A stretch of 56,319 nucleotides of DNA from Thermoanaerobaculia bacterium (GCA_035273585.1 DATEOX010000532.1:1-56319); one strand, 5' to 3'. Shown: positions 19,637 to 38,800, numbered from the stretch's first letter. Numbers and translations are program-made. The notes: a model not told the origin generated them from the letters alone.

Positions 19637-20323
19637 TTAATTGAAGTCTCCCGTTCGCGCAAGTCGTCGTGTCCGGAGAAGCAGTTTGTATTTCTCGGCT
19701 ACCCGCGCTGGCATATCGTGGAAGTAGATTTTGGTCGAATCGATGTCCTTGTGTCCGAGCCACCACTGCACATCCGCCAAGTCCCATCCGGCGCGCGCGA
19801 GGTGCGTCCCGCAGGTGTGGCGAAGGGCGTGTGGGTGCCGCAGGTCTGCGGGTATCCCTGCGGCGCGTGCGTAAAGCTGGAAAAGGTGGCTGATCGTTCC
19901 TTCCGTGAGCGGTCTAGCGCTCCTACGGCGGCCACGGAAGAGGTACGCGCAGGGGTCAGCAGGTCGCACATCCATGTAGGCGCGGAAGAGCCGCTTACTG
20001 CGCCCGTGGAGCGGATGCCAGTTTGCATCGCCGCCCTTGAGCCGCCAAATCCAGATCTCATCTCCGCGTACGTCCGTGACCTCCATGAGTGCCGCTTCGC
20101 CGCGTCGCAGGCCATGCCGATACATGAGATCGAACAGGAGCAGGTCGCGCACGTTTCCCTTTGGGATTTGCGCGAAGAATGCTTCCACCTGTTCGCGGGT
20201 AAGGAACTTGACCGGGTGCTGCGCGGGAGGCCGCCCTCCCCGCGACTGGTGCTCTCGCCGTAGGTGACGGGCGTTCCGGGGCTTGTGCTGCGCACGAAAG
20301 CCGATATTGGCACTTTTCCTCAT
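19637..20323 (-). CDS. Short tyrosine recombinase/integrase (copy 1)
   Basis: GLRRGEA (Arg), HALRHT (His-x-x-Arg), WLGHKD, STKIYFH (Tyr). Start at MRKSANIG. Paralogous to 29424-30074. Confidence 0.85.
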   Translation of the reverse strand: MRKSANIGFRAQHKPRNARHLRREHQSRGGRPPAQHPVKFLTREQVEAFFAQIPKGNVRDLLLFDLMYRHGLRRGEAALMEVTDVRGDEIWIWRLKGGDANWHPLHGRSKRLFRAYMDVRPADPCAYLFRGRRRSARPLTEGTISHLFQLYARAAGIPADLRHPHALRHTCGTHLARAGWDLADVQWWLGHKDIDSTKIYFHDMPARVAEKYKLLLRTRRLARTGDFN

Positions 20324-20393
20324 TTTCGATAATTCAGATGATGGGGAACGGCGCACTCTGCGCGTGTGCCGTGAGATCGTCCAGCGCCTCGGC

Positions 20394-22292
20394 GTGTCGC
20401 TCATCGCGCTATTCATTCTGGGGATCGCAGTTCCGGTCTCGGCCGCGACGATCGTTACCTTCATCACGACAGGGAGCGGCGACACGATCAGCGTGACGAA
20501 CCCGCAGCTCGCGGCTGTCACCGGACGAATCCGGCTGATTCCTGACGCCGGTCCTGCGTCCGTACCCGCGCTCCCGTTTTCGCTCGCAAATCTCGAAACG
20601 AGATCGTTCCCGAACGTCCTCGCGAACTTCGGGGCGCCGAGTGCACCTGCGATCCTCGCCGTCGAGACTTCGGATGTCGTCAAAGTATCGAGCGCGTCGC
20701 TGCGTGTCGGCTTCCCGGACCGTCACCTGACGCTGCCAGTGCGATTCAATCCGGGGACCCCAGCTATCGGTTCCCTGACGCTGGGCATCCTGAACGGGCT
20801 GGTTCGCGTGAACATCTACGAGCATCAGGGAAGCGTCACGCCACTCGTCAGCCGCACGCTTGCAAGTTCTGGCGAAGAGGTCACGCGCCTTCGCTACGCC
20901 GATTTGCTGCCGGCGTCGATGATGATTAGTGACGGATACGCTGAGTTGATCCCGCCGAGCGGACAGGTCGTGGGGACTGCTGTGAATCCACCAACACGAC
21001 GACGTGCGGTCGCACCTCCATCGACACCGCCTCCGACGCTCTCGATCGCCGGATCGCCCGCGTGTGAATTCGCAACAGGCATCCGCGCGAGCGTGACGGC
21101 CGTTTCGGGCTCGACCTACCGGTGGTCGCTTATGAATGCAACAGCACAGGGATCTGTCGCGGGGAACACGCTTGATCTGGTTCTCGGCAGCCGGGGGTAC
21201 GCCTCGGTCGTACTCGAGCGCACGCTCGGTGGCTCGCTCTCGACCGTCGAGGCAGTCATCGCAATCGCTGGAAAACCCGGCTACGAAGGAAGCACTGCGT
21301 CGTCCGTCACCCTTGGAGAAGACGCCACGATCACGTGGACGCTCAGCGGGGCCGCACCTACGAGTCAAACGCTCTCGGGCACGGACTTCGGGGCCGTCAC
21401 TCTCGATCCTGCTGCGACGAGCTATGCCTATCGGCCGACGACAACGGGCTCGAAGACGTACACCCTCACCGCCGACAACGACTGCGGCAGCGGCAGTGCG
21501 CGCGGCGATTACACCGTGTCGGATGCATGCACAACTCCCCGCATTGATTCGTTCACCAACAGTGGGGCGGTGTGCGCAGGCAACGCCGTGCAACTTATGT
21601 GGGCGACATCAGGATCGGGCAGCGTCACGATTAACAACGGTGTCGGGGCCGTGCCAGCGAACGGTTCGATCTCCGTTTCCCCACCGTCAACAACACCCTA
21701 CATGCTGACGAAGACCGCAGCCTGTGGAACTGCCAACGCGACGACGGTGGCAACGGTGACAACGCCGAGCGCGTCGAGCTTTACGATTGACTTCAACCCG
21801 ATTGCGTTCGGCTGTGGCGTACCCGTCCACTTCACCATCGCCGACACCGCGACATGGACCGTTGCCAGCGCAGGTCACAATAGTCTCACCCCAAATTCCG
21901 GAACGGGCAGCGGAAGCTTTACGGCAATCTACGGGACAGATAACAGTGATGATAGTACGGACGTACTAACCTTGTCCCTGACCGACGCGTGCGGCAACAC
22001 GGCAACCCGCACGCTGAACGTCGCGGTGTCGACTCCATCGATCACGAGCTTTGCGACACCGGCATCTGTCGCGAGTGGGGCGAGTGGCACGATTACGTTC
22101 ACCTATTCAACGGCCACGCACTACACACTCACTTCCAGCTTGGGAAACAGTATCGTTCCGGCGACAGGCAACAGCACAAGCGGTGGGTCCGCCACGTATA
22201 CTCGCGACAAGGCCTCGGGTCCGGACACACTCACGCTGCACATCGCATTTGAGGGCTGCGATACCGCCACACAAACCCGCGTGATTAACTGA
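20394..22292 (+). CDS. Secreted Thr/Ser-rich repeat protein (Ig-like/beta-sandwich repeats likely)
   Basis: GTG start gives signal peptide VSLIALFILGIAVPVSAAT. Repetitive T/S/G-rich beta-strand-like segments. Confidence 0.55.
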   Translation: MSLIALFILGIAVPVSAATIVTFITTGSGDTISVTNPQLAAVTGRIRLIPDAGPASVPALPFSLANLETRSFPNVLANFGAPSAPAILAVETSDVVKVSSASLRVGFPDRHLTLPVRFNPGTPAIGSLTLGILNGLVRVNIYEHQGSVTPLVSRTLASSGEEVTRLRYADLLPASMMISDGYAELIPPSGQVVGTAVNPPTRRRAVAPPSTPPPTLSIAGSPACEFATGIRASVTAVSGSTYRWSLMNATAQGSVAGNTLDLVLGSRGYASVVLERTLGGSLSTVEAVIAIAGKPGYEGSTASSVTLGEDATITWTLSGAAPTSQTLSGTDFGAVTLDPAATSYAYRPTTTGSKTYTLTADNDCGSGSARGDYTVSDACTTPRIDSFTNSGAVCAGNAVQLMWATSGSGSVTINNGVGAVPANGSISVSPPSTTPYMLTKTAACGTANATTVATVTTPSASSFTIDFNPIAFGCGVPVHFTIADTATWTVASAGHNSLTPNSGTGSGSFTAIYGTDNSDDSTDVLTLSLTDACGNTATRTLNVAVSTPSITSFATPASVASGASGTITFTYSTATHYTLTSSLGNSIVPATGNSTSGGSATYTRDKASGPDTLTLHIAFEGCDTATQTRVIN

Positions 22293-22342: not shown

Positions 22343-23335
22343 TCATTGCGTCTCTAAGAGCGATCGCAAGTGCGCAAGTTGGACCTCGCCGATTGAGGGA
22401 CGATGATCGGCCCCGACGATTGGCTCGACCTCAGCCACCGGCATGAATAGTGCCTTGTCCGCATCCCACCGATAAAGGATCGTGACCTGTTGCGGCGCCT
22501 GGAACGCGCATCCATACATCGGATCGTTCTTAAGAGACACGAAAGCGCACACACCTGACTCGACACAGTTTTCGACGACTGCCTGCGACAATGCATTAAA
22601 TGGCGGCTTCAGCTTCGCAGGCGGCTCAGGTGCCGCGCTGTGTTCCAGCAGATCTTGGAGATAGGCCTTCGCAGCGACGCTGACGGAGACTCTGCGATCT
22701 GGACCGATGATCGGATCGACATCCGCGATCGGGAGGTACAGCGCTTGCGTCGCATCCCAGCGGTACAGAATAGTCGTGCCTTCAGGCGTTTGGAACACCA
22801 TCCCGAACATGGAATCCCCTCGAAACGGGACGAATGCGCCGGAGCCTGACGCCACGGATTCCTCCGCCCACCGCTGGTTCAACGCAGAATGACCGGGTGT
22901 TGCCTTCTGTGGCTCATCTCCCAACTTGTGCGCGAAGTCGGCGCGTTGCTCTCTCGTGAGGTGTACGAACCCGTCTGCACCGATGATGTCGGGGATCTTG
23001 GCGATGGGGCTGAAGAGATACGTGCTGCTGTCGTACTGATACAAGAACGCTGCGCCGGGTTTGATCTGATACACGAGTCCATCCGGTCCGTGCCGAAGCG
23101 GAACGAATGCCCCGAGCCTTTGATGCACGAACGTGTTTGCTGCGACGCTCTTGATGGCGCTCCGTTCCTGGTCCGTTGACCCGCTCGTGACCGACGGTGG
23201 GTTCGTCCAATCCGTGGTTTCAGCCGAGGACGTTTGCTGAATCTGATCCAGCCTTTTCTCCATTCGCGCGAGACGTTCGTTCGATTCGTTCCGGCACGCG
23301 ACGATCAGGAGGCAAAGCACGAGGGCGTTGCGCAT
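22343..23335 (-). CDS. Lipoprotein with three internal ~95-aa repeats
   Basis: Lipobox LLIVAC. Three repeats: GAFVPLRHG...LYQYDSS...IIGADG, GAFVPFRGD...LYRWDAT...IIGPDR, CAFVSLKND...LYRWDAD...IVGADH. Confidence 0.6.
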   Translation of the reverse strand: MRNALVLCLLIVACRNESNERLARMEKRLDQIQQTSSAETTDWTNPPSVTSGSTDQERSAIKSVAANTFVHQRLGAFVPLRHGPDGLVYQIKPGAAFLYQYDSSTYLFSPIAKIPDIIGADGFVHLTREQRADFAHKLGDEPQKATPGHSALNQRWAEESVASGSGAFVPFRGDSMFGMVFQTPEGTTILYRWDATQALYLPIADVDPIIGPDRRVSVSVAAKAYLQDLLEHSAAPEPPAKLKPPFNALSQAVVENCVESGVCAFVSLKNDPMYGCAFQAPQQVTILYRWDADKALFMPVAEVEPIVGADHRPSIGEVQLAHLRSLLETQ

Positions 23336-23496: not shown

Positions 23497-24273
23497 ATGA
23501 CGAGAGAGCGGCGAACCGCAGGAGAGAATCACCCGATCACCGCCGAGGACGTGCGATCTGACATAGACGTACTTCTTTGGTCGATGAAACTAAGCTCCGT
23601 CCGACGCTTTTTTCACCAACGTTTCTGGGAGGACGAAACCGCCGACGCGGAGTATGCCTCGCGCATAGAGGCATTCCCACGCCTGGAGAGCGTTGCTGAA
23701 CACTCTTGGCACGTAGCCGACGCCGTGCTTCTTCTCGGTCCTCATTTCTCCGAGGTAGATATCGGACGATGTCTGGCCCTTGCTATTCTTCACGACAAGC
23801 TTGAAATCATCACTGGAGATAGGAATCCGATCGGCCGGGATGGAACTGGTGCTGCGACGCACGCCTTTGACGAAGGTGCTCGTCTCCGAAAAGAAGCTCT
23901 AGAGTCTGATGCGCTCGAAGTCTACTTGGGGAAGCTTCGCCACTCCGCTCGTCACATACACGCCGAGGCCTTCGGTGAACTTGGTAATCGCAACAACGTA
24001 AATGCTCGATTTGTACGAGCAGTTGACAAGCTACAGGCCCTAGCCTTCGTTATCCTTAAGAAGAAAGGGAATCTCGAGGATCGCCATCTGGACTTTACTC
24101 TTCGCTATTCCGAGCGTTCAGTCGAATTATTTCCTAATCTACAAAGTCACTATCAGGAGCTTCGCTGCCGCCTGGTAAGACAGGTCTCGGAGCGACGCGG
24201 CTGTACCCCAGAAGAGGTAGTTGCTGGGCTATCTAGCAATCAGCTAGTGCTACCTCTCGGAGAAGACGAATGA
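23497..24273 (+). CDS. HD-domain phosphohydrolase, YfbR-like 5'-deoxynucleotidase family
   Basis: ESVAEHSWHVA, ILHDKLEIITGD, AVDKLQAL match the YfbR-type HD pattern. ATG at 23497. Confidence 0.75.
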   Translation: MTRERRTAGENHPITAEDVRSDIDVLLWSMKLSSVRRFFHQRFWEDETADAEYASRIEAFPRLESVAEHSWHVADAVLLLGPHFSEVDIGRCLALAILHDKLEIITGDRNPIGRDGTGAATHAFDEGARLRKEALESDALEVYLGKLRHSARHIHAEAFGELGNRNNVNARFVRAVDKLQALAFVILKKKGNLEDRHLDFTLRYSERSVELFPNLQSHYQELRCRLVRQVSERRGCTPEEVVAGLSSNQLVLPLGEDE

Positions 24274-24333
24274 CATGCCACGTCTTCATAACAAACACCG
24301 CGCACTGCCTCTCAGGAAGAATCTCACCGTAAA

Positions 24334-26190
24334 GTGCGAGAAATACGCAACATTCTTCTCGACTTCATGGATCGCGAAAACCGCCAGGCGTACGGCTTTT
24401 TTCGAGATATTGACGACGTGCGGCACGTCGACCTTCTCGTCCATGCGCTCAATGTCGCCGTATTTCTATGCCATGAATACTGTGTAATCACGCCGGGACC
24501 CGTTACCGATTGCGGCTTAGCACGGCTCGCCCTTGAACGGCGCGACGCCTTCATTCGGCACGGGCTCATTCGGTTGCCACTTAGGGAGGCATCAGTTAGT
24601 GAGTTTATTGAAAAACGACTTCGCCAATACAGCCCTCAACGCGCGCTGTTCCCGGACTTGTATTCCGAGGACGCGCGCACATTCTTAGCTAAATATCCTG
24701 AGCTGGTTCATCCAAGACGTACCGCGGCAGGGATGTTTATTGCCGAGCGCTGGATACATCGTAAGGTTGATGACCCGTCGTGGGCGAAGGTTACCGCCAA
24801 ACTCACCAAAAGGCAGGCAGGAACGCTAACGCGGATACCGCTAACGCTTGTGGAGAAGGGAGTGGCTGCAAACTGGCCCGCCGTGGCCGCCAGTCTTAGA
24901 AAACAGATCGGGATCGCAGACCCTCGATCGTTACGCAGCCTACTGCAAGCCGATCATTTCACGGCGTATACAACCGAATTCTCCTTGGCCCGGCTGTCTA
25001 GATTGCCTCTCGTCAGGGACTTGCAGTCACTGCGTCCCTCGGATCTTTGCTACGACTACGAAGCGATCCGTGAGGCTCTTACCGTGGTAGGCCTCTGGCC
25101 TTTCGTCGAGGCGATGAGCGCCGAGGCAGTCGTTGCGCTTCGAAGCCGCAACGGTTTCTTCTCCTTTCGTCAGGCCTATCACAAATTGGCGCAGTCAACC
25201 CGCGTGCCGCGAGAGGTTGGACAGGCTGTAGCCGAGGCAGCGAACGCAGCGCGGCGCGCATTCCGTGACACGCCGGAGATCGATCTTCTTCCGAGGTTCA
25301 CATCACCGCCGGAGCGCGGCTGGGAGTGCACCACCGCGACGCTGGACGCGATTGAGTACCGCTTCGAGGAAGTGGCAAAGCATATTCACCCATATGATGA
25401 TCCGCTGAAACGTCCGTCTCGCCGGGCGAGGAGGAGCAACGTGACCATCGCAGTGTTTGTTGCCCTTGAAGAAGAAAGAGAGTTTTTGGTGCAGCGATGG
25501 CACCTTACACAGAAGTATGGCGATGTCGCTTGGACACAGCATGTCGGCCGGGTGGATGTAGCCGTGTACGGGCCCGACGAATCTGGTAGGGTCGCAGCAG
25601 CCGTGGCTACTCTTGAACTTTTGCGGTCGATAACTCCCGCGCTCTTCGTGGTGACAGGCCTGGCGGGTGGGTTCAAAATATCCGGAGTCGACCTCGGCGA
25701 TGTGATCGTGGCTGATACGGTGGCTGACCTCGCGACTCGCAAAATTCGCAACGACGCCGAATCTGTTCGCGCAGAGTTTCGACCGCGAACCTTCAGGACC
25801 GATTTGAGGCTGCGTGATTTCTTCAAGAGTGGATCCTTCCAAGCCAGTGAGTGGGAGGGAAGAATTCTCGCCGACGCCGCGTGGCCAAAAGGGAGGCGCC
25901 CCGCACTTCGATACGGCACGATCGCCTCTCTCGACGAAGTTGTGAGCAGTGACGCCTGGCAGCAGCGCCTTATCGCGGCGTGGCCCGAATTGCTAGGTGT
26001 AGAAATGGAGGCCGGAGGCGTTTGCAGAGCCCTTGCGCGCACTCGGATACCCGTGGCGGTGGTTCGCGGAGTGTCCGACCTAGCGGATCCCATGAAAGCG
26101 GATGATCGATGGAGACGAATTGCCATTCACACGGTCGCGTCGCTCCTGGAAACGTCGTTCGAATCATCCGAATGGACCCAAAGCCTGTGA
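24334..26190 (+). CDS. Unknown ~365-aa N-terminal helical domain fused to MTAN/PNP_UDP-type nucleosidase domain
   Basis: C-terminal third carries IAVFVALEEEREFL, VVTGLAGG, GVEMEAGGV and VRGVSDLAD (MTA/SAH-nucleosidase signature order). I recognise no motif in the N-terminal part. Confidence 0.8.
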   Translation: MREIRNILLDFMDRENRQAYGFFRDIDDVRHVDLLVHALNVAVFLCHEYCVITPGPVTDCGLARLALERRDAFIRHGLIRLPLREASVSEFIEKRLRQYSPQRALFPDLYSEDARTFLAKYPELVHPRRTAAGMFIAERWIHRKVDDPSWAKVTAKLTKRQAGTLTRIPLTLVEKGVAANWPAVAASLRKQIGIADPRSLRSLLQADHFTAYTTEFSLARLSRLPLVRDLQSLRPSDLCYDYEAIREALTVVGLWPFVEAMSAEAVVALRSRNGFFSFRQAYHKLAQSTRVPREVGQAVAEAANAARRAFRDTPEIDLLPRFTSPPERGWECTTATLDAIEYRFEEVAKHIHPYDDPLKRPSRRARRSNVTIAVFVALEEEREFLVQRWHLTQKYGDVAWTQHVGRVDVAVYGPDESGRVAAAVATLELLRSITPALFVVTGLAGGFKISGVDLGDVIVADTVADLATRKIRNDAESVRAEFRPRTFRTDLRLRDFFKSGSFQASEWEGRILADAAWPKGRRPALRYGTIASLDEVVSSDAWQQRLIAAWPELLGVEMEAGGVCRALARTRIPVAVVRGVSDLADPMKADDRWRRIAIHTVASLLETSFESSEWTQSL

Positions 26191-26213
26191 TTTCGGAAGC
26201 GTAATTGGACGAC

Positions 26214-27341
26214 ATGACATTTCAGGCGATCTATCGCACCGAGGCTGGACGGGGATGTACGTTTCACAGCCTTGTCGGTGCATCGGGAGAGCCCGAGGCC
26301 TACTGTTGTATTCTCGATGGCAGCTCGCAGCGGCTGCCACAAAACGTGCTTGCAAGCACACGGCTCATTCAGATCTCCCTCAGCCCGAGGCAGCTTCGAA
26401 CGCAGCTGCGGCGGCAGGCGAAGAACCTGGAACAGAAGCTTCAGCTCATAGATGCTCTGGATCTGTGCCGGGTACCGATAACGAAAGAGTTTCGCACGGC
26501 TAGGGCATTCGTCTTGGCACCCGAGTCCGCGCGAAGCTCTCACGCATGGACGCTGGCAGCCGATCTATGGAAGCATGTGACGCAGTCAGAAAACGTCAGA
26601 GTAGTAACCCAGCCCGACTATGATCAAATGGAATTCGCTCATCACTGGGTCGGGCTACTAGACTGCCCGTCGTTTCATACGAAGCACGTGCCTTCGGCCG
26701 TCGCTACTGTCGACACCTATACGAGCGTACTCGGAACTCTGCTGCCGGCGCGTGATGCACCGACGATATCCGTCATCGGTGTCGGAGAACTTGGCGGGCG
26801 TATTTGCGACGCCTTTCTTAACGCTGGGAACCCTGTCATCGCCTTTGACATAGACCCTCGCAGGTGCGAGCCATTTGCGAATAGAAAAGGGTTCTCGGCG
26901 GCGCCGAGTGTTCGCGACGCGCTAACGTCTGGAGCCGCTGCAACCGTTTTCTGCGCCCGCGCGAACAGCCTTTCCGTGAGTGTGGCAAGAATACTCGCTC
27001 GGACAGGGGGAACTCTCTGTGTGGGTGGACCTGAGGCCGGCCTTGACAGGAACGCCCAGGCCCTGCGTGTTTTGCGTGACGGGCGCATACATTTCATACC
27101 AAGTGTGCTGTGCGGGTCACTTGGCTTGGCCGCGAACCTCGAAGAAGTCTTGGGCGTTCATGTGGATCTTGAGCGTGCTCGCCTTCGACTCGCAGACCAT
27201 GTTGCGGCGGTCATTCGCGAGATGCATTTGAGGAACGAGTTGTTTGATGAGTCGTGGGTGAGCTACACCCAGTCCATCATGGGTGCTGCACATCTTGAAT
27301 TTCAAGAGCACGGAAGTAGCCGAGCTGATGATTTGGAGTGA
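26214..27341 (+). CDS. Protein with Glu/Leu/Phe/Val-dehydrogenase-like NAD(P)-binding Rossmann domain and unknown N-terminal domain
   Basis: ISVIGVGELGGRICDAFLNAGNPVIAFDID, then FCARANS and VGGPEAGL...GRIHFIPSVLCGSLG, mirroring the C-terminal domain of ELFV dehydrogenases. Confidence 0.55.
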   Translation: MTFQAIYRTEAGRGCTFHSLVGASGEPEAYCCILDGSSQRLPQNVLASTRLIQISLSPRQLRTQLRRQAKNLEQKLQLIDALDLCRVPITKEFRTARAFVLAPESARSSHAWTLAADLWKHVTQSENVRVVTQPDYDQMEFAHHWVGLLDCPSFHTKHVPSAVATVDTYTSVLGTLLPARDAPTISVIGVGELGGRICDAFLNAGNPVIAFDIDPRRCEPFANRKGFSAAPSVRDALTSGAAATVFCARANSLSVSVARILARTGGTLCVGGPEAGLDRNAQALRVLRDGRIHFIPSVLCGSLGLAANLEEVLGVHVDLERARLRLADHVAAVIREMHLRNELFDESWVSYTQSIMGAAHLEFQEHGSSRADDLE

Positions 27342-27886
27342 CTGCGATGGATGGATGGCGTGACGCTGGCCGAGCTCGTTCCCGATTCACATGCGCGATT
27401 CTAGAGGTGGTATCGGTGGAGAGGACGCGCATACCGTCGGGCGAAACGGGAGAGTTCGTCATTTTGAGGGCGAAACCTTGGGTTAACGTGGTCGCTGTGA
27501 CAAGCGCCGGCAACCTCGTATTAGTTCGACACTTTAGGCATGGAATATCGGACTATTCGCTTGAGCTGCCGGCTGGAATCATCGAGAACGACGAGACCGT
27601 AAGCGCCGCTGCCGTTAGAGAGTTGCTAGAAGAAACTGGATATGAGGGGACCGACGGTCGACTGTTGGGTGAGCTGTACCCGAACCCCGGGCTACAGGAT
27701 AACGCCTGTTTTTCGTGGCTTGTAAGGAACGCCGCTTCCGTCAGAGTGGCGCAGCCTGATCCACTGGAGGATGTGGAAGTCGTGGAGATGCCATTCACCG
27801 CAGTTCGGACGGCCGTGATGCGAGGCGAGATCAGGAACGCGTTGACTGTAGCAGCACTGTACTTGGCACTTGATGATCTGCGATGA
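27338..27886 (+). CDS. Nudix hydrolase, ADP-ribose pyrophosphatase-like
   Basis: Nudix box AGIIENDETVSAAAVRELLEETGY. GTG start overlaps the previous stop (GTGA). Confidence 0.85.
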   Translation: MTAMDGWRDAGRARSRFTCAILEVVSVERTRIPSGETGEFVILRAKPWVNVVAVTSAGNLVLVRHFRHGISDYSLELPAGIIENDETVSAAAVRELLEETGYEGTDGRLLGELYPNPGLQDNACFSWLVRNAASVRVAQPDPLEDVEVVEMPFTAVRTAVMRGEIRNALTVAALYLALDDLR

Positions 27887-27942
27887 GAGGCCACGTCGCA
27901 CGCTGTGACGCGGGCACTGACCTCTAGGAAAAGAAGCGATAC

Positions 27943-28464
27943 TCAGCCTGCAGCCAGCGATACCATCCAATCATCAATGGACGCCGTAAGCTCAGCATTA
28001 TCTGCAAACATGTTAACAACAACTTTGTCGAAGGGTTGCCCCTCCAACTCCGTCTCGCCCGCGTGCGAATCGTCAACGCCTAGCACAAACTCTTGTCCAC
28101 GCGCGAGAAGTCGCTGCGAGCGAAGCCCGAGCGGCGCCTCAACTTTCAACAATAGATATTCCTTGCCCCGAAAGAATTCCCAGTCGGGCAGAAAGCGCAT
28201 GCTATCAAAAACGATCGGGACATCTTCCTTCGCTTGGCGCAGGCATGCGTTTATCCAGACGAAGTGATCTATGCTCCTAAGCGCATCGTTCACTTTGTTC
28301 AATGTTGTCTTACCTTCTGTTCCGAAGGCTAGTCGCGTGATTTGCCGGCATATGTCGCCAGGGCTCAGGCGCTGATACCCATATCTCTCCACGAAATGGC
28401 GTGCAATGACGGACTTGCCGCTACCAGACGCCCCGTACAGAGCGATATTGGGTAATGTGTGCAT
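27943..28464 (-). CDS. P-loop nucleotide/nucleoside kinase-like protein
   Basis: Walker A at residue ~10 (LYGASGSGKSVIA), small 173-aa kinase-sized protein. Convergent with the Nudix gene. Confidence 0.65.
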   Translation of the reverse strand: MHTLPNIALYGASGSGKSVIARHFVERYGYQRLSPGDICRQITRLAFGTEGKTTLNKVNDALRSIDHFVWINACLRQAKEDVPIVFDSMRFLPDWEFFRGKEYLLLKVEAPLGLRSQRLLARGQEFVLGVDDSHAGETELEGQPFDKVVVNMFADNAELTASIDDWMVSLAAG

Positions 28465-28518
28465 ACTCTAGTAACCGAAGAGCTGCCCCTGTGCGACCCC
28501 TGTAATGAGGAGATTAAA

Positions 28519-29211
28519 TCAAGGAGTGGTATCGAACACGCGAGAGCTCAGTTGTGCTTCTGGACTGGCAATAATTCGACGACGTTTGAATACGCGGCGA
28601 ATGCCGCGGCTACCCTTATCATTCGGCTGCTGGAATTCCGTCGTACTCCAATCCAGATAGCGTTTGTATAACAGTGGGATGTGGACATAAATCGAACGAG
28701 CGTCAGCCTTACCAATGCCCGATGAACCAGCGTAATAGTTCTGATACCAGTCAACGGCAGCTTTGACGCCTGGCCAGCCGGATTTCAGTCCCGGCCCGAT
28801 TAACGCGAACACGAGGTCATCATCTATCAAGCGTTTGTGGACGAGTATACCGACTTGATTGTAGAAACGGAGGAGTCGCCGCATTTGTCGGTCAAGATGT
28901 TCCTCCTTTGTTCGTTCGTTCATCTCTCTTTGCGCGTAGTGCTGACCGTACTCTTCGCCGGTCGACGGTACAGGGTCCACGCGGGAGATTAGCTCAGCGG
29001 CACCGCGAGCGTTCTGAATGGCCGGATCGATGTAGGCGCCGTAGATCTGCCAAGCAATGTCGGCGGCGCGCGCAGCATGAGCATCACGAGCCGCAGCGCG
29101 GATTTGCAGGATGGCAATACAGACACCGATTATAGCGACAAGAACAGTCCCGATTGATGAGAGCGCGTTGAAATCGACTGTCTGCATGGGCCTTCCTTGG
29201 GCTCTATCCAC
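28519..29211 (-). CDS. Hypothetical N-terminally membrane-anchored protein
   Basis: TM helix IGTVLVAIIGVCIAILQI followed by a soluble helical domain. Start may be the internal MQTVDF. Confidence 0.45.
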   Translation of the reverse strand: MDRAQGRPMQTVDFNALSSIGTVLVAIIGVCIAILQIRAAARDAHAARAADIAWQIYGAYIDPAIQNARGAAELISRVDPVPSTGEEYGQHYAQREMNERTKEEHLDRQMRRLLRFYNQVGILVHKRLIDDDLVFALIGPGLKSGWPGVKAAVDWYQNYYAGSSGIGKADARSIYVHIPLLYKRYLDWSTTEFQQPNDKGSRGIRRVFKRRRIIASPEAQLSSRVFDTTP

Positions 29212-30074: not shown

Positions 30075-30298
30075 AAGCGTTCGATGGGTAGAAAGAACGA
30101 AGAGGAATGCGCTTCTAAGCCTGCGGCCAGTTTGTCTTTCTGTAAACGTGGCCGCGTTGCAGGTTCCCGCTCACTCATTCATGAGGAGGTAGGCCCATGC
30201 CACCCGAACGACGTGATTCTGCTTCCCTTGCTAAGACACTCAAGCGAGTCTGTAACAAGCCGGTTGCAGCGAAAGGTGTTGATCTGAAAACGAAACGA

Positions 30299-30745
30299 AT
30301 GCGCATCCGTGAGCTGTTTCTGCGGCGCGCTGAGTCATACAGCGTGAGGGAGGCCGCAAGCATCGTGGGGATCTCGGCCCGCGCGCTGCGGCGCGAAGCT
30401 GAAGACGATCAACGCGAGGCATACGTCGTGGACGGTGCGTGGCAGTTCACCTGGCGACAAGTGGCGTTCATCGCAATGCGGCGATGGACTCTCGTCGAGA
30501 TCCATGCGGCCCTAGGGAAAGACGCAGAGACTATCCTGCCGCCGCTCTTGGCGCTGGAAAGGCTCACGGTTCGCCTTCCAGCCTTTCTCGTCCGCGCGAT
30601 GAAGACGGCCGCCTCGCAAGATGCGCTGCCGATTGACGATTGGCTGCGACTTGAACTCATCGACTACGCGGGAACGGTCGCTGATGACATGGAGGCGATT
30701 CATCCCGGCTTTCGGCAGGCATATCTCTTTCCTGGGCGAGAATGA
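30299..30745 (+). CDS. Helix-turn-helix (MerR/excisionase-like) DNA-binding protein
   Basis: YSVREAASIVGISARALRR. Divergent from recombinase 2. Confidence 0.5.
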   Translation: MRIRELFLRRAESYSVREAASIVGISARALRREAEDDQREAYVVDGAWQFTWRQVAFIAMRRWTLVEIHAALGKDAETILPPLLALERLTVRLPAFLVRAMKTAASQDALPIDDWLRLELIDYAGTVADDMEAIHPGFRQAYLFPGRE

Positions 30746-30791
30746 ACCGGCCGGGCTTCACGTCTCGAACCAGCCTGACGTGCGTAGTAGG

Positions 30792-33700
30792 ATGGTGCCT
30801 TCCAAGCGGAAGGCTATCCACGTGAACGATGTCTCGGATGCGAGATTTGAAGCAAAGTACGCCGTCTGGAAGGAGCGATTACTCGATCTCACGGCGAGTA
30901 ATCGGTTGCTCAACTTCCGCGAAACGAAAGTCTCGACCGTCCAAATAACGTTCCCTGATCCGCTCGCGCTTTTCGATGCGATCGTCCTTCGCGAAAGGTC
31001 GCTCAAGTTTCCGCTATACCGCGGACGGACTGTTCTCGACGAAGCTGAAGACGAGATCCCGGCAACCGAGTACCGAGTGACGCCCGGAGACTTGGAAGCG
31101 AAGAAGTCCCCACCCGATCTCGAACGGAGTCTCTACCGCCTCACGTCGCTCGCACGCACGTACCGAGAAGAGCGAGGTATCAACACACTGTACGTCGCGA
31201 TCGGGATGCTCGTCTGGCGGCCGGCGGATGGCGCTTCGCCGCAGAAAGCTCCTCTCGTCCTCGTGCCCGTCCAGCTCGCGCGGCAGGATCGGTTACATCC
31301 ATATGTCCTCCAACCGTTCGATGAAGATCCCGAGGTCAACCCGACCTTGGCGTACATGCTTCGACGCGACTTTGAGTACGCATTGCCTGCCTTGCCGGAA
31401 GAGATCACGCCCGAGAGTTTGGCGACTCTCTTCGAGAGCGTGTCGAAGGCGGTGAAGCGCCGCGGTTGGGCAGTGGAGACGAGCGCATGGCTTGGACAAT
31501 TTCAGTTTCGCAAGCTCGCGATGTATCGCGATCTCGAAGAGCATGCCGCGATTGCCTCGACGAATGAGCGGCTGACGGCGGTAGCAATCGGCCGAGAGTA
31601 CGACGGGACTCTCGAAGGGCCGAGCGAGGATGGTCTCGACGATATTTCCCCGGCAGAAGTCTTCACGGCACTCGATGCCGATGCCTCACAAACGCAGGTG
31701 ATCGTGCGCGCGCGCGGAGGAGAAGACCTGCTCGTGCAGGGTCCACCTGGAACCGGCAAGAGTCAGACGATCGCCAACCTCATCGCGCAATTCCTGCTCG
31801 ATGGGAAGAAGGTGCTGTTTGTCAGCGAGAAGATGGCCGCACTCAATGTGGTTCACGAGCGACTTCGAGAGTGTGGCCTCGGCACGTTCTGTCTTGAACT
31901 CCATAGCGACAAGGCCAACAAGCGCGACACCCTCGTTCGCATCGGCCGAGCAGCCGCGTGCGATCCGGTAGAGTATCCGGTCGCGGAGCGTCAGTTTCAG
32001 GAACTGCTGCATCTTCGGAAAGAACTGAACGCCTACGTCCGTGCGCTGCACCAACCGGCACTCGGGCTCCGTACGGCCTATGACATTCACGGCGCGCTCG
32101 CGGCACTCGATGCCGTGCCCGATGTTGTTACCGACTTAGATTTCGATCCCGCGACGCTCAATGAACAGCAAGAGGCGGAGCTGCTTGAGCATGTTGCTGG
32201 TATCAGCAGGTTTGCCGATATTTTCGACGCACCGACTCCTCACCTCTTCGCCGGATTGCGCGCGGATCGTTGGTCGGCGCAACTTCAGGCAGAGGTTGCG
32301 ATCGCAATGCGCAACCTCAGCACCTCGGCGGCAGCGCTTCGTAACACTGGTGCCGACGCTGCCGCGATGCTCGATCTTGCGCAACCGCAAACATTCGAGG
32401 CAGCACACCATCTTCAAGCTACCCTCGACCTCGTCGCATCGTCGCCATCCCCGCCCCGACATTGGCTCGACGGGGTAGACCTCGACGAGCTGCATGAACA
32501 TGCGAGCACGCTCGCGCGTGACGCAGAGAACCACCGCCGAATCATCGAGCAACTTCGCGACATGTTCGATGAGTCGTTCTTACGGCTTGATGCGAACGCT
32601 TTGCTTGCCGATCTGTCGCCTGATCTCGGCGTGCCTTCGACGCATGAACCAACCGAGGTTCGGTGTGCGAATTGCGGGCAGCTTAATCGCATTCCGCGTC
32701 TGAAGCCGGGCCAGCGTGCGACCTGCGGTAGCTGTAAAGAACCGCTTACCGTTCACCACGGCGACCGTGATGAGTTGCTAAACGTGTTCGAGCAGCGCGC
32801 CTCCGCAATCGCGACGGTACTGCGTGGTCTCGACGAAACGATTGCGCAAGTCCTCTCGGTGGGTGCACGACTCGCGATGAGCCTTGGTGAGCCTACGCCA
32901 AGCGATTTCGAGGCTGCGCGCGAACTTGTGCTTCTTGCATCTTCAATTGCGCGCGTGGGGCAGGCACAGCCCACTTGGTTTGATCGGGCGAGTCTTGTCG
33001 AATTGCGCGCCGAGGTGACGGAATGTGAGCGCCAGCACCAGCGCGCCACTCTGCTGCGACAACACATTGAGCGAGAGTTCACGGATCGCATTCAGACGCT
33101 CCCAATCGCGGAGTACCACAACGCGCTTACGACAACATTTCGGGGACGGTTCCGTTGGCTGCGTCCAGCCTACTGGCGACTCTTGCGCGACCTCCGCTCG
33201 ACGCTCCGCACCGACCGTGCGCTTTCGTACACGGACGCGACGGGGTTTGTGCAGAAGGTCTCAAAGCTGCTCTCGATCGAGCAATGGTTCGCGGATCGCC
33301 GAACGCAGCACGTGAACACCTTAGGAGCCTTGTATGCCGGTGAGGGCACCGACTGGAAAGGCCTCGATGCGCGCCTGACCGCCATGCAAGGTCTACACGA
33401 TCGATTCGTTGATGCGCTTCAGCGGCCGATCATTCGTGGGCACCTCGTATCGGGAGACATGACGATTTCCTCGACGGCCACGGAACTCCAAGCGCTCTGC
33501 GAGGCGTGTGCATCGCGGCTAGACGACAGCGACGTGCGCCGGTTCCTGCCGACGATTGATGCGCAGTCGTTTGCGCATGTTCGCGATAGTTGCCGCACGA
33601 CGCTTCTGCCGTTGGAACGATTCATCTCCGCCGCGGCGATCGTGCGGGGAAAGATGCGTGTCCCGGCAACGACCCCCCTGACCAATGCTGTCGAAGCACT

Positions 33701-36455
33701 CGCTGATCTTGTTGTCGCGCACGAGATCGAACAACGCGTGCGGATGAGTGAGGAGCATTCTCGGGCGCTGTTGGCGCACCTGTACGCGGGACTCGACACC
33801 TCATTCAGCGCGATTGATACTGCGCTCGCGTGGGCAGCAAGATTCCGCAAACACTGCGGCACCAATCGTTCTCTGGCCGACGCTGCATGCGACGCGAGCT
33901 CCATCGACCGAGCGGCGGTCGCGGCTCGATCCCATCAGGAGCGCCTTCGCGATTTCGAGGCGGCGATCGGGCGGCTGCGTGAGTTCTTTCCAGAGGAAGT
34001 CTGCACCAGTCTCCAGCAGCAGCCATTAAGCACGGTCGAGGAATGGGCGCGCGTCCGTGCCGATCGCGTTGGCGATCTCGGGGACTGGCTGCACTACTCC
34101 GAGATCGTTGCAGAGTGCGCAGAAAGCGGCCTTCAGCGCTTCCTTGACTCGGCGCGAGCGGCACGTATCTCCGCGGACAATCTCGAGCACGTCCTCCTCA
34201 AGGTTCTTCGCGTCCGTCAGCTCGACGCAATTTACCGAGGGCTTCCGCCGCTTCGCCGGTTCAACGTCGCGGATCACGAGAATCTCATCACGCGCTTCCG
34301 CAAGCTCGACACCGCGCTCATGTCAATTCATCGACGCCGCGTTCAAGCGGCAGTCTCCTCCCGCCGTCCCGACCTCAATCGCGCGGGAGCAGGGCAGAGT
34401 CGATTCTTGCGGCGCGAAATCGCGAAACAACGTCGGCATGCGCCGCTCCGTCGTCTCTTCCAAGAGGCCGGTCGAATCATCCTGGACCTCACGCCGTGCC
34501 TGCTCATGAGTCCTCTCTCTGTGGCGACGTACCTTGCCAAGGATGCGGTGGACTTTGATGTCGCGATCTTCGATGAAGCATCGCAAATGCCGATTGAGGA
34601 TGCGGTCGGCACCATCTTCCGGTCACGTCAGCTCATCGTCGCGGGTGACGCGAAACAGATGCCGCCGTCGCGATTCTTTGAACGGAGCGTCGACGACGGC
34701 GGCGAGGAGGACATCGCAGAGCAGCCGTTAGAAAGTATCTTGGAAGACTGTGAAGCAGCGGGCATGGAGTCACGTCCGCTTCGCTGGCACTACCGCAGTC
34801 GGCATGAAAGTCTGATTGCGTTCAGCAATGCCGAGTTCTACGACAACCGACTCATTACGTTTCCCTCACCCAGCGTCGCGCCCCCACGTGGCCTCGGTGT
34901 CCGATTTGAATATGTCGCTGACGGTGTGTATGACCGCGGCGCATCGCGTACAAACAGGACTGAAGCCCGCCGCGTGGCGCACGTTGTCCAGTTGCATCTT
35001 GAACAGTTCCCCAACCAGTCACTCGGCGTGATTGCGCTCAGCACAGCGCAAGCACAGGCGATCGACGAGGAGATCCAGAATCTCCTCAACAGCCGGCCGG
35101 ATCTGGATGCGAAGCTCCGCACGAGCGAGGGAGACCCGTTCTTCGTCAAGTCGCTTGAGAATGTCCAAGGCGACGAACGCGACGCAATGGTCATCTCCAT
35201 CGGGTACGCGAAAGATGCCAGCGGGAAGCTCGCTCTCCAGTTTGGTCCGGTCAGCACGGATGGAGGCGAGCGACGCCTGAACGTTGCGTTCACGAGAGCG
35301 CGCTGCCAAATGATCGTTGTGTCGTCGATTCGCGGTGGAGAGATCAACGTCGCCGCGGTTCAGAAGCGTGGCCCCAAGGTGCTGCGTCGGTATCTCGAAT
35401 ACGCCGAGGACGGCGTTCTTCCCGATGAGATGACTTCGGCGCTTGCGGAACCCGAATCACCCTTTGAGGAAAGTGTGCGATCCGTCCTGCGCGACGCAGG
35501 CTACGACGTCGATTGTCAGGTCGGTGTGTCGCGCTACCGGATTGATCTCGCTGTGCGACATCCGAGTGAGCCGGGACACTATCTCGTGGGTATCGAATGC
35601 GACGGAGCTGCATATCACTCGTCGCGCGTCGCACGAGATCGGGATCGGCTACGCCAAACCGTTTTGGAACAGCGTCGATGGAAGATCTATCGCATCTGGT
35701 CAACGGACTGGATTCGGAACCGCCGCTCTACCGTCGAGCGCCTTCTGCGTCATCTACAGGAACTGCGCGAGCGCGGTGAGGTCGGCGGACTCGCTGATGC
35801 TCTCCCTGAGCCGGTTGCTCCCGACGAGCCGTCGATTGTGAGTGAGTTCGATGTGCCGGCCGCACCTACGATAACACCGCTCGTTCATCAAGAGCACCCA
35901 CCATACAGTGACGCGATTAGTGTTTACGTCGAGGCGACGCTCCCAAAACGACATCGCGACGCGCTTTATAACGGCGGTGCAGCGGCACTTCGCGATCTGA
36001 TCGTTGCAGTTGTTGCACAGGAAGCGCCCGTCCATGAAGACATTGTCGTTGTCCGCATCGCGCGTGCTCACGGTCTTCAGCGTGCTGGTCACATCGTCGA
36101 GAAGACGATCCTCCGTGCCGTCGCTGCCGCCGTGCGAGCCGGTGCCATCGCACGGCGTGAGAGCTTCTTGTGGCCGACAAACGTTCGGGCGGTAACACCA
36201 CGACGACCCGCGCCTGGCCAGCCCCTCCGTGCAATCGAGCATGTTGCCCCCGAGGAAATCGCGGAGGCGGCGATACTTGTCATTCGCTCTTCGCGCGGCA
36301 TTAACGATGCGGATCTCAAGCGGGAGACGGCGCGCGTGTTTGGGTACCAGCGGACAGGGGAGAAGATCGAGCAGACGGTCGCGCAAGTAATCAATGGACT
36401 CGTGGCGGAGGGCCGTATCGTGATCCGCGGCGGATTCCTCGTTGTCACGAGTTGA
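30792..36455 (+). CDS. Giant DUF4011 / Upf1-DNA2-like SF1 helicase / Vsr(DUF559)-like endonuclease / DUF3320 protein
   Basis: LLDLTASNRLLNFRETK (DUF4011-type N-terminus). Helicase motifs LVQGPPGTGKSQT, IFDEASQM, VAGDAKQMPP, VQGDERD, LNVAFTRAR. Nuclease-like YRIDLAV...GIECDGAAYHSS...IYRIWSTDW. CxxC-N17-CxxC zinc ribbon at about 32660-32750. Confidence 0.9.
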   Translation: MVPSKRKAIHVNDVSDARFEAKYAVWKERLLDLTASNRLLNFRETKVSTVQITFPDPLALFDAIVLRERSLKFPLYRGRTVLDEAEDEIPATEYRVTPGDLEAKKSPPDLERSLYRLTSLARTYREERGINTLYVAIGMLVWRPADGASPQKAPLVLVPVQLARQDRLHPYVLQPFDEDPEVNPTLAYMLRRDFEYALPALPEEITPESLATLFESVSKAVKRRGWAVETSAWLGQFQFRKLAMYRDLEEHAAIASTNERLTAVAIGREYDGTLEGPSEDGLDDISPAEVFTALDADASQTQVIVRARGGEDLLVQGPPGTGKSQTIANLIAQFLLDGKKVLFVSEKMAALNVVHERLRECGLGTFCLELHSDKANKRDTLVRIGRAAACDPVEYPVAERQFQELLHLRKELNAYVRALHQPALGLRTAYDIHGALAALDAVPDVVTDLDFDPATLNEQQEAELLEHVAGISRFADIFDAPTPHLFAGLRADRWSAQLQAEVAIAMRNLSTSAAALRNTGADAAAMLDLAQPQTFEAAHHLQATLDLVASSPSPPRHWLDGVDLDELHEHASTLARDAENHRRIIEQLRDMFDESFLRLDANALLADLSPDLGVPSTHEPTEVRCANCGQLNRIPRLKPGQRATCGSCKEPLTVHHGDRDELLNVFEQRASAIATVLRGLDETIAQVLSVGARLAMSLGEPTPSDFEAARELVLLASSIARVGQAQPTWFDRASLVELRAEVTECERQHQRATLLRQHIEREFTDRIQTLPIAEYHNALTTTFRGRFRWLRPAYWRLLRDLRSTLRTDRALSYTDATGFVQKVSKLLSIEQWFADRRTQHVNTLGALYAGEGTDWKGLDARLTAMQGLHDRFVDALQRPIIRGHLVSGDMTISSTATELQALCEACASRLDDSDVRRFLPTIDAQSFAHVRDSCRTTLLPLERFISAAAIVRGKMRVPATTPLTNAVEALADLVVAHEIEQRVRMSEEHSRALLAHLYAGLDTSFSAIDTALAWAARFRKHCGTNRSLADAACDASSIDRAAVAARSHQERLRDFEAAIGRLREFFPEEVCTSLQQQPLSTVEEWARVRADRVGDLGDWLHYSEIVAECAESGLQRFLDSARAARISADNLEHVLLKVLRVRQLDAIYRGLPPLRRFNVADHENLITRFRKLDTALMSIHRRRVQAAVSSRRPDLNRAGAGQSRFLRREIAKQRRHAPLRRLFQEAGRIILDLTPCLLMSPLSVATYLAKDAVDFDVAIFDEASQMPIEDAVGTIFRSRQLIVAGDAKQMPPSRFFERSVDDGGEEDIAEQPLESILEDCEAAGMESRPLRWHYRSRHESLIAFSNAEFYDNRLITFPSPSVAPPRGLGVRFEYVADGVYDRGASRTNRTEARRVAHVVQLHLEQFPNQSLGVIALSTAQAQAIDEEIQNLLNSRPDLDAKLRTSEGDPFFVKSLENVQGDERDAMVISIGYAKDASGKLALQFGPVSTDGGERRLNVAFTRARCQMIVVSSIRGGEINVAAVQKRGPKVLRRYLEYAEDGVLPDEMTSALAEPESPFEESVRSVLRDAGYDVDCQVGVSRYRIDLAVRHPSEPGHYLVGIECDGAAYHSSRVARDRDRLRQTVLEQRRWKIYRIWSTDWIRNRRSTVERLLRHLQELRERGEVGGLADALPEPVAPDEPSIVSEFDVPAAPTITPLVHQEHPPYSDAISVYVEATLPKRHRDALYNGGAAALRDLIVAVVAQEAPVHEDIVVVRIARAHGLQRAGHIVEKTILRAVAAAVRAGAIARRESFLWPTNVRAVTPRRPAPGQPLRAIEHVAPEEIAEAAILVIRSSRGINDADLKRETARVFGYQRTGEKIEQTVAQVINGLVAEGRIVIRGGFLVVTS

Positions 36456-38531: not shown

Positions 38532-38765
38532 ATGCGCCAGCTCGCACGTGACCCGTTCGCACGCACCACGCTCAGGCGCGTAGTCGTGCGCCCGCTCGCA
38601 TCTGGGCAGACCTGCTCGTGGTGCGGCAACGTGCGGGTGTCGCGTCGATCCCACACGTCGTTCCTGTACCGCTACGGCACCGAGCCGGACGCGATACGCC
38701 CCCGGATGCAGTGGCACGACGGAGCGTTCTGCTCGAAATCCTGCCACGACGCCTACCACCACTAA
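38532..38765 (+). CDS. Small Cys/His-rich (zinc-binding?) protein
   Basis: 77 aa with CSWCG...CSKSCHDAYHH, just upstream of parB-like gene. Confidence 0.4.
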   Translation: MRQLARDPFARTTLRRVVVRPLASGQTCSWCGNVRVSRRSHTSFLYRYGTEPDAIRPRMQWHDGAFCSKSCHDAYHH

Positions 38766-38800
38766 CCAACCCACAACCGACAACCGAAAAGGAGATAGTC

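Follow-up and report, generated by a model that had tools for sequence, protein, structure and literature searches.

A mobile cassette of an HD phosphohydrolase, a P-loop kinase and a nucleosidase fusion in a Thermoanaerobaculia bacterium: a candidate member of an undescribed anti-phage module family

In a 56,319-nt stretch of DNA from a Thermoanaerobaculia bacterium (GCA_035273585.1 DATEOX010000532.1:1-56319), which was analysed as a whole and is referred to here as the window, positions 23497-28464 hold a cassette of nucleotide-acting genes. We consider it probable, at roughly 60%, that this region belongs to a so far undescribed family of mobile abortive-infection or defence modules directed against phages or mobile genetic elements (MGEs), in which a kinase and a phosphatase would set the level of a nucleotide ligand, an N-terminal domain termed N-dom would sense it, and an effector would be gated by N-dom. 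The conserved core of this family is an HD nucleotidase, a kinase of the nucleoside monophosphate (NMP) kinase fold and N-dom joined to an exchangeable effector. New are the receptor domain N-dom and its pairing with the enzymes; the effector type is already known. A first-pass annotation of the window, made from the sequence alone, had proposed an undescribed nucleotide-centred conflict-system candidate on mobile DNA, and this proposal is supported. Membership among conflict systems is well supported; the mechanism is one that we infer.

The map of open reading frames (ORFs), together with domain searches, gives the following layout of the cassette:

23497-24273, plus strand, HD phosphohydrolase gene (core gene 1)
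24334-26190, plus strand, gene of a 618-amino acid (aa) protein (core gene 2), beginning 60 nt past the HD stop
24334-25401, plus strand, N-dom, the helical N-terminal part of core gene 2, about 350 aa, with no known relative (AlphaFold2 model)
25444-26190, plus strand, PNP/MTAN-fold nucleosidase domain, the C-terminal part of core gene 2 (Pfam, PADLOC and Foldseek)
26205 (or ATG 26214)-27341, plus strand, gene of a Rossmann protein of 375-378 aa, after a gap of 14-23 nt
27338-27886, plus strand, gene of a 182-aa Nudix protein, in a GTGA start/stop overlap with the Rossmann gene
27943-28464, minus strand, gene of a 173-aa P-loop kinase (core gene 3), convergent, 56 nt past the Nudix stop

The tight packing of four same-strand genes described in the first-pass annotation, with a 60-nt gap, a gap of about 20 nt and a GTGA overlap, is found in the ORF map, the second gap measuring 14-23 nt. 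The domains it had read from the sequence (HD, a 618-aa nucleosidase fusion, an NAD(P) Rossmann protein, Nudix and a Walker-A kinase) were likewise recovered by Pfam, PDB matches and profiles. The GTG start of the 618-aa gene at 24334 is supported because its first 11 residues, MREIRNILLDF, agree with the conserved N-terminus of the family (NIFLDFLNRDSR). A scan for promoters and terminators was uninformative and returned fewer matches than shuffled sequence.

The defining part of the 618-aa protein is N-dom, which is predicted to be a sensor or switch domain. Foldseek searches with the full-length model returned MTAN matches only, all from the PNP domain, and the N-terminal domain was therefore remodelled alone. 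AlphaFold2 predicted it with high confidence (pLDDT 90, pTM 0.89) as a mostly helical structure. Its conserved residues include R69, E74, K83, Y88, R117, W129 and Y201, counted on a 607-aa call of the protein (11 is to be added for the 618-aa form). N-dom had no Pfam match even at E<=1, no match in NCBIfam and nothing in PADLOC at E<=0.01, the PADLOC matches of the 618-aa protein being confined to its PNP part. A comparison of the N-dom profile with PDB sequences gave noise only, and Foldseek found nothing significant for the model (best E 0.25 in the PDB and 1.3 in BFVD, TM<=0.19). The top PDB matches in this search were LmuA chains (E 0.25-0.4, TM 0.12), which are non-significant and were discounted as evidence.

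N-dom occurs with many other partners. In an exhaustive hidden Markov model search of 1.84 billion representatives, many proteins matched profile positions 1-350 only and carried other domains instead. Among 42 scanned proteins, the effectors attached to N-dom were PNP (11), CAP12/Pycsar-type TIR (4), TIR_2 (4), EAD1 (2) and EAD7 (2), with single fusions to GT4-conflict, PRTase-CE, Cap4 nuclease and CHAT domains. N-dom was also joined to an FAD oxidoreductase; the Cap4 nuclease sits N-terminal. To see toxic or effector-recruiting domains swapped around a module that itself stays constant is a classic signature of conflict systems.

In the window, the exchangeable position is occupied by a PNP domain, predicted to be a nucleosidase effector of the type known to destroy ATP in phage infection, with purine-nucleotide cleavage as its likely output. 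Pfam PNP_UDP_1 matched residues 371-602 of the 618-aa protein (1.6e-19), and the comparison with MTAN structures by Foldseek gave 1e-13 with a TMt of ~0.75. The relation to defence nucleosidases drawn in the first-pass annotation is supported by PADLOC, where the domain matched PDC-M60C (3.6e-22) and the CBASS PN effector (1.6e-14). It shows the hallmarks of defence-type PNP effectors, i.e. the PNP fold, an E-M-E motif (E557-M558-E559) and a catalytic-type Asp (D582, within SDLADP; compare Cap17 D472 and DtcC D353). The VEMEAGG and RGVSDLADP motifs are invariant across the family and align with those of DtcC and MtnN. The closest relatives of the domain are one SIR2-PNP protein and one PNP-NACHT-TPR-Nudix protein of NLR-like layout. 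PNP domains of the defence clade cleave ATP and dATP (Rousset et al. 2023, doi 10.1101/2023.01.24.525353).

Expressed on their own, the PNP domains of Cap17 and DtcC are toxic (doi 10.1101/2023.01.24.525353), which lends something to an explanation of the toxin-antitoxin (TA) kind. Here, the N-dom-effector protein would be the toxin and the HD protein and kinase its enzymatic antitoxins, which would constantly undo or forestall its product or modify the toxin, and a shut-off of host expression induced by infection would unleash the effector. The tight coupling of the operon, the HD-kinase fusions described below and the TA modules that are common neighbours would all agree with such an arrangement. 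An HD nucleotidase and an NMP kinase, however, cannot rebuild ATP from adenine and ribose-5-triphosphate, and the effectors partnered by N-dom are chemically unrelated (nuclease, protease, TIR), so that a nucleotide phosphatase and a kinase would be no antidote to them. We regard a TA-like function as improbable.

Core gene 1 is predicted to encode a YfbR-like HD phosphohydrolase, a putative 5'-(deoxy)nucleotidase. The protein scored above the Pfam gathering thresholds for both HD_3 (1.1e-18, 68.2 bits against a cut-off of 22.5) and YfbR-like (5.8e-9, 36.3 bits against 25.9), and it carries the H...HD...E...D...D motif of YfbR-like HD 5'-deoxynucleotidases (PF12917/PF13023). The motif residues are H69/H72, H99-D100, E103, D108 and D176, and this metal-binding and catalytic motif is at least 80-95% conserved among 59 family members. 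Core gene 3 encodes a small P-loop kinase whose sequence features place it in the NMP-kinase fold. It matched AAA_18, AAA_33 and ADK in Pfam, and its family profile resembles adenylate kinases, AdkA-like proteins and phosphomevalonate kinase. Its Walker A motif spans G11-S18 with K17, followed by an Arg-rich lid; Walker A, D87/R90 and R115/R118/R122 are conserved in the family.

The unity of this core was derived from the comparison of about 100 related loci. The 618-aa protein has seven close relatives in a word-indexed search, among which only that of locus L001 (86% identical) has the arrangement of the window. In L003, the HD gene, an AAA_18 kinase gene and the PNP-fusion gene are collinear on one strand, and in L004 the HD and kinase genes are fused, as they are in L010, L014, L015, L088 and L090. 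A scan of 185,579 species genomes yielded 25 loci with the patterns used, distributed over Solirubrobacterales, Longimicrobiaceae, Acidobacteriota, many Alphaproteobacteria and Fibrella, and in almost every one of these tblastn gave the order HD, kinase, PNP fusion. When metagenomes were scanned for the N-dom profile, 69 further loci were added. The HD, kinase and N-dom-PNP genes are adjacent in most loci, from Acidobacteriota, Actinomycetota, Gemmatimonadota, Alphaproteobacteria and soil or marine metagenomes, and the arrangement thus recurs in dozens of unrelated contigs of several phyla. Cultured carriers include Polymorphobacter sp. PAMC 29334 (plasmid p29334-2), Aminobacter aganoensis DSM 7051, Puniceibacterium confluentis, Ruegeria sp. 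SCP10, Fibrella musci WM1 and Anabaena cylindrica PCC 7122 (pANACY.03).

For a census of the enzymes, 65 non-redundant loci with sufficient upstream sequence were analysed by domain mapping followed by tblastn correction. Both the HD and the kinase gene neighbour N-dom in 43 of them, the HD gene only in four and the kinase gene only in two. Eight loci contain a second type of operon, mostly composed of a nucleoside deoxyribosyltransferase (NDT), a deoxynucleoside kinase (dNK) and an N-dom-TIR protein, and the remaining eight have none of these enzymes next to N-dom. The HD gene consequently adjoins the N-dom gene in 47/65 loci, and nucleotide kinases or hydrolases stand beside N-dom in 57/65.

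These data alter two points of the first-pass annotation. The kinase does converge on the operon, as had been stated, but it is not an outsider: in most loci it is found on the same strand between the HD and N-dom genes, and since related loci keep the kinase with HD and N-dom-PNP, it is best described as a core gene that was inverted and shifted downstream in the lineage of the window. Similarly, the four genes proposed as a unit are all present, but the conserved unit is HD, kinase and N-dom-PNP, with both enzymes in 43 of the 65 loci and some of them fused.

The enzymes vary with the effector. NDT and dNK accompany the TIR versions of N-dom, and other partners comprise a dNK/AAA_28 kinase together with a guanylate-kinase-like protein, and a LOG-like protein. 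In L104, a 615-aa MazG-radical SAM fusion (1172-3019, plus strand) overlaps the following N-dom gene (3016-4494), whose product ends in something other than a PNP domain; as a nucleotide-modifying partner, the fusion is unusual. A compact variant is found in Anabaena cylindrica PCC 7122 (L111; pANACY.03, record 76474-79904), where the gene of a 417-aa N-dom protein annotated as hypothetical (WP_015217775.1) is followed by an annotated dTMP kinase (Tmk) and a 349-aa hypothetical protein, with an integrase and a transposase nearby.

This variation bears on the possibility that N-dom directly detects a protein or nucleic acid of the phage and that no small-molecule signal is involved. The HD, PNP and Nudix proteins would then jointly strip the pool of (deoxy)nucleoside triphosphates, (d)NTPs, with HD turning deoxynucleoside monophosphates into deoxynucleosides and PNP releasing the base from (d)ATP or nucleosides, and the kinase would feed or regulate this process. 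Depletion of dNTPs, by dGTPase or dCTP deaminase, is an established defence strategy; every enzyme of the cassette is nucleotide-acting with its catalytic motifs kept, and the PNP-NACHT-TPR-Nudix protein combines PNP and Nudix outputs in a single sensor. Some N-dom loci moreover lack the enzymes, so that N-dom can work alone. A kinase, on the other hand, makes little sense in a depletion output, and the enzymes change with the effector, NDT and dNK being used for TIR and Tmk, guanylate-kinase-like or MazG proteins for others. The constant feature is a nucleotide kinase with a hydrolase or transferase, which fits the production and removal of a signal better than the demolition of a pool. Direct sensing seems unlikely to us, although it is the strongest of the competing explanations.

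An ordinary, horizontally transferred operon for nucleoside or nucleotide salvage without any role in conflict would be suggested by the housekeeping kin of all catalytic domains (YfbR, MtnN, Adk and NudF), and the L005 cassette indeed lies beside Ham1, PfkB and GHMP-kinase genes. The family is nevertheless very rare and patchy, with only the 25 matches mentioned above in the species genomes, and the scores against the housekeeping equivalogs are all far under their cut-offs. N-dom is also fused to the conflict-specific domains TIR, Cap4 nuclease, CHAT and EADs, and the flanks are never conserved but contain transposases and defence genes. The syntenic core genes next to purine or methionine salvage loci, which the first-pass annotation had named as the finding that would speak against it, were not seen, as the flanks differ from locus to locus and carry transposases, relaxases and defence systems. 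A pure salvage function is very improbable.

A scan of the flanks covered 93 proteins from 14 loci, and clustering of the predicted neighbours showed nothing outside the cassette that is common between loci. The flanking proteins include DDE transposases, resolvases, a TrwC relaxase, a T4 coupling protein and ordinary metabolic proteins. Strong defence matches in the flanks were GajA (4.5e-211) and GajB (4.3e-183) of Gabija, and also PD-Lambda-1, DRT4/6, PDC-M19A and mad3. On the Polymorphobacter plasmid p29334-2, the collinear cassette (90161-93738) is bordered by a type I restriction-modification system with DUF262 and, at its opposite end, by HipA, integrases and VapBC. As a yardstick from the literature, known defence systems lie near about 3% of randomly chosen genes and near 18% of the PNP genes of the Cap17 clade (Rousset et al., doi 10.1101/2023.01.24.525353).

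With regard to mobility, the following features of the window are relevant in addition to the cassette:

19637-20683, minus strand, left tyrosine recombinase, a paralogue of the right-hand copy
28519-29211, minus strand, DUF4760 protein gene (Pfam DUF4760, 4.2e-6), with an N-terminal hydrophobic helix
29424-30074, minus strand, right, short tyrosine recombinase (Pfam Phage_integrase, 9e-27), context outside the system
30621-36455, plus strand, Hhe/PDC-S37-type helicase-nuclease of 1944 aa, a separate known defence gene (PADLOC PDC-S37 E=0, 1449.6 bits; Hhe 2.4e-184)

The GC content is 0.53-0.60 over 23-29 kb as compared with 0.66-0.69 over 1-6 kb, in agreement with the A/T-richer block noted in the first-pass annotation. 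The view of the cassette as part of an integrase-bounded island finds no support beyond the paralogy of the two tyrosine recombinases (49% identical over 224 aa). Nucleotide similarity between the window and L001 extends over 23643-29190, from HD through DUF4760, and does not reach the right-hand integrase. A search for repeats or att sites linking the two integrases found none, the integrase genes alone matching each other.

The location on mobile DNA could also be explained by a counter-defence cassette of a mobile element, which would degrade nucleotide signals of host immunity or rebuild nucleotide pools, and the HD, Nudix and nucleosidase proteins could in principle destroy cyclic or linear nucleotide signals or those derived from ADP-ribose (ADPR). 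This suggestion, also made in the first-pass annotation, is disfavoured. Relatives of N-dom were found neither in IMG/VR (2.9 M viral contigs) nor in 50,697 phage genomes, N-dom is fused to toxic, suicide-type effectors such as TIR, Cap4 and CHAT, and the cassette co-localises with defence systems and not with phage genes. We consider such a role highly implausible, and a defensive module of the proposed kind remains our preferred reading.

Unlike the core, the Rossmann and Nudix genes are not conserved across the family at large. They accompany the core in three lineages only: the window, its 86% identical relative L001 and the distant L032 (L032/33), where the Rossmann protein is 32% identical and the pair again stands behind the core. 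Among the 25 loci from species genomes, they were present in L001 only. The Nudix gene follows the Rossmann gene in every occurrence. Elsewhere, the Rossmann protein is found in L031 with a Nudix protein and a 2H phosphoesterase and in L034 with PfkB, an ADK-like kinase and a 5'-nucleotidase. Its company with other nucleotide genes marks it as a recurrent nucleotide-linked accessory outside the core.

The Rossmann protein matched NAD_binding_2 in Pfam (1.6e-5, with a TrkA_N-type motif) and has a GxGxLGxRI sequence at about residues 189-197. Its family profile matches KtrA/TrkA-N and 6PGDH and, weakly and at the corresponding position, Phe and Trp dehydrogenases (E 1.6e-3 to 0.035); PF00208 is recorded on one homologue. 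Judged from these matches, its layout resembles that of amino-acid dehydrogenases. The catalytic N-domain of ELFV dehydrogenases was unmatched, and only the Rossmann region resembles PheDH/TrpDH, weakly. Conserved motifs of the family are QPDYDQ, GGPEAGLD and PSxLCG. The Nudix protein (Pfam NUDIX, 1.3e-14) has ADPR pyrophosphatases as its best PDB matches (7e-16 to 1e-13) and reached 2.4e-19 and 69.6 bits against NudE of NCBIfam, below the cut-off of 169. Its Nudix box is intact (G80...E86...R94 E95..E98 E99.G101, for GX5EX7REUXEEXGU), and the intact box and the nearest similarity to ADPRases mark it as an ADP-ribose/ADP-sugar pyrophosphatase-like hydrolase.

The Rossmann and Nudix pair is one of three alternative accessories at the 3' end of the core, the others being a protein of about 180 aa (nine loci) and a convergent HARE-HTH protein (13 alphaproteobacterial loci). 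An assignment of the ~180-aa protein to the NDT/DUF4406 type, considered on the basis of a YVxGPLD motif and a DUF4406 match at E=0.14, was rejected, since hhalign against the NDTs of TIR operons was negative and the PDB profile search was empty. The HARE-HTH protein, some 300 aa long, carries the domain that names it (1.9e-9) at the N-terminus and always abuts the PNP-fusion gene convergently in the alphaproteobacterial copies (L010-L017, L021, L023, L024 and others; e.g. L016 11839-12759, minus strand). Its C-terminal 230 aa are without a match; a degenerate Nudix box suspected in this protein was dismissed, as hhalign against a Nudix alignment gave a probability of 1.5% and a PDB search gave noise. 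HARE-HTH domains have been proposed as readers of modified DNA. Finally, the DUF4760 gene is present in L001 and missing from all other loci, and its membership in the cassette is uncertain because it is co-inherited in the closest relative only.

If the components act together as proposed, the kinase and the HD phosphatase would oppose each other on a mononucleotide, most likely a deoxynucleotide, and thereby set the level of a phosphorylated ligand. In the sister operons, dNK with NDT, Tmk or MazG would write or erase the ligand instead. Infection would shift the ligand by way of phage-specific or modified deoxynucleoside monophosphates (dNMPs), a surge of dNMPs from the breakdown of host DNA, or the loss of a short-lived phosphatase. 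Binding of the ligand by N-dom would release the effector, and the PNP domain would then split purine nucleotides, namely (d)ATP in the manner of Cap17 and DtcC, at their N-glycosidic bond, so that the invader is starved and the cell arrested or killed. The Nudix and Rossmann pair probably handles products of the ribose-phosphate or ADP-ribose type or tunes the signal, which is the weakest and a speculative step; the combination of PNP and Nudix recurs in the PNP-NACHT-TPR-Nudix fusion. The bias towards deoxynucleotide enzymes (YfbR, dNK, Tmk and NDT) suggests abnormal dNMP metabolism in infected cells, and possibly modified dNMPs, as the input.

A wider proposal, which we put forward tentatively and regard as rather doubtful, is that the cassette is the first example of a broad immune class, in which an operon-encoded kinase and an opposing hydrolase or transferase write and erase a non-cyclic (deoxy)mononucleotide that is read by an N-dom driving some ten effector types. 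The pairs of writer and eraser may be HD with NMP kinase, NDT with dNK, Tmk and MazG, and phage-specific or modified dNMPs may be the source of the signal.

Several observations weigh against the model of a kinase- and phosphatase-controlled sensor. Eight of the 65 N-dom loci are without any adjacent enzyme and four have HD without the kinase, which indicates that the enzyme pair is not strictly required. In pairwise BLAST, the PNP domain is no nearer to DtcC (2e-4) or Cap17 (partial sequence, 4e-4) than to MtnN (2e-7), a comparison that is only indicative. The NCBIfam model of MtnN also gives 5.5e-23, though far under the cut-off of that model. Finally, N-dom is without a detectable relative, and its role as a nucleotide sensor is suggested by guilt by association and by its place as the constant partner of variable effectors.

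The surroundings of the cassette contain further genes of possible interest. Between the left integrase and the cassette lie a 669-aa Ser/Thr/Ala-rich, secreted-looking protein (20283-22292, plus strand) and a 330-aa protein that has an N-terminus like that of lipoproteins and contains a triplicated motif (22343-23335, minus strand), neither of which has a match in Pfam, NCBIfam or PADLOC. A small 182-aa ORF (30197-30745, plus strand) is found between the right-hand integrase and the Hhe gene, and directly past Hhe are genes for a DUF7678 protein (36586-37302, minus strand) and a DUF3841 protein (37443-38102, minus strand) that could be more island cargo. A protein of 818 aa (9117-11573, minus strand), in which TPR repeats are combined with an AAA_16 ATPase at the N-terminus, has a STAND/NLR-like layout and may be another defence sensor in the low-GC region. 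A 609-aa ParB-N/HTH_ParB protein (38618-40447, plus strand) and a 537-aa large serine recombinase (42322-43935, minus strand), taken together with the two tyrosine recombinases, suggest a composite integrated mobile element of about 7-44 kb. ARAGORN called a tRNA-Val(GAC) at 12193-12285 (minus strand) that overlaps the 3' end of an ORF with an Orn/Arg decarboxylase domain (12252-14723, 823 aa); with its unusual length of 93 nt, it may be a false call or the remnant of an integration site. In the related locus L004, the genes just upstream of the cassette (357-3944, plus strand) encode an HD-CE protein (1.7e-38) and a TPR/HEAT-repeat protein of 814-821 aa, and they probably form a further conflict system of that island.

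If confirmed, the family would represent a new type of defence whose receptor domain has no known structural relative, and PNP ATP-nucleosidase effectors would extend to a further setting. The association with deoxynucleotide enzymes hints at a way for bacteria to perceive the changes in dNMP metabolism that are typical of modified-DNA phages. The cultured carriers make the family testable now.

No description of a system combining HD, kinase and PNP or NDT, dNK and TIR was found in full-text literature searches, subscription-only papers and the newest DefenseFinder models being outside the scope of the comparison, and a 2026 domain-centric discovery paper that was searched for such terms yielded no description. 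Among the characterized systems, CBASS with the Cap17 effector and Detocs with DtcC share with the cassette a PNP/MTAN domain placed C-terminal to a regulatory domain, in which the catalytic-type Asp and the EME motif are kept and whose predicted output is cleavage of purine nucleotides. The absence of a classical signal generator stated in the first-pass annotation is upheld by PADLOC and Pfam, which found no CD-NTase in the cassette and flanking proteins and no TIR, cyclase or histidine kinase in the cassette. Unlike in Cap17, the N-terminal 350 aa are neither SAVED nor TPALS/SLOG (no Pfam match at E<=1 and no structural match). Unlike in Detocs, there is no HisKA, HATPase, Response_reg or DtcB, and the alignment with DtcC is limited to the PNP domain. 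Instead of the CBASS and Detocs components, the cassette has an HD nucleotidase and an NMP-kinase-like protein as partners. PDC-M60C is the top PADLOC match of the 618-aa protein, but this match is PNP-only (profile positions 195-399 of 407, protein residues 406-610), and no other protein of the cassette, be it HD, kinase or Rossmann, matches PDC-M60; for the HD and kinase proteins, PADLOC gave no match to any model at E<=0.01.

The NLR-like/Avs and EAD conflict systems (Kaur et al. 2020/2021) use the same swappable effectors (PNP, TIR, Cap4, CHAT, EAD1/7, PRTase-CE and GT4-conflict), and the nearest PNP relatives include the PNP-NACHT-TPR-Nudix protein. N-dom, however, differs from the STAND/NACHT NTPases, lacks a P-loop and any known fold, and is accompanied by separate nucleotide-metabolising enzymes. 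With housekeeping YfbR, Adk-type NMP kinases and NudF, the cassette shares folds and catalytic motifs, but equivalog scores are far under cut-offs and the cassette is mobile and patchily distributed.

The nearest precedent for the proposed signalling is Kongming (KomA/B/C), in which a SIR2 complex is activated by dITP, the product of nucleotide kinases and a deaminase; mononucleotides that are non-cyclic and modified in the base or phosphate, such as dITP, are thus known as immune signals (doi 10.1101/2024.12.20.629578, PMC13454610). The likeness is one of analogy and not of homology, and consists in a non-cyclic mononucleotide signal from ordinary-looking nucleotide enzymes including kinases, a protein of nucleotide-hydrolase fold in the sensing machinery and a metabolite-depleting effector. 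The cassette lacks the adenosine deaminase KomA, the Ham1-type KomB and the SIR2 protein KomC, a Ham1 gene being found only beside the relative L005, and its kinase is host-encoded, within the operon. Control of a mononucleotide by a kinase and a phosphatase would also differ from signalling by cyclic oligonucleotides (CBASS, type III CRISPR and Pycsar), by NAD-derived molecules (Thoeris) and by two-component systems (Detocs).

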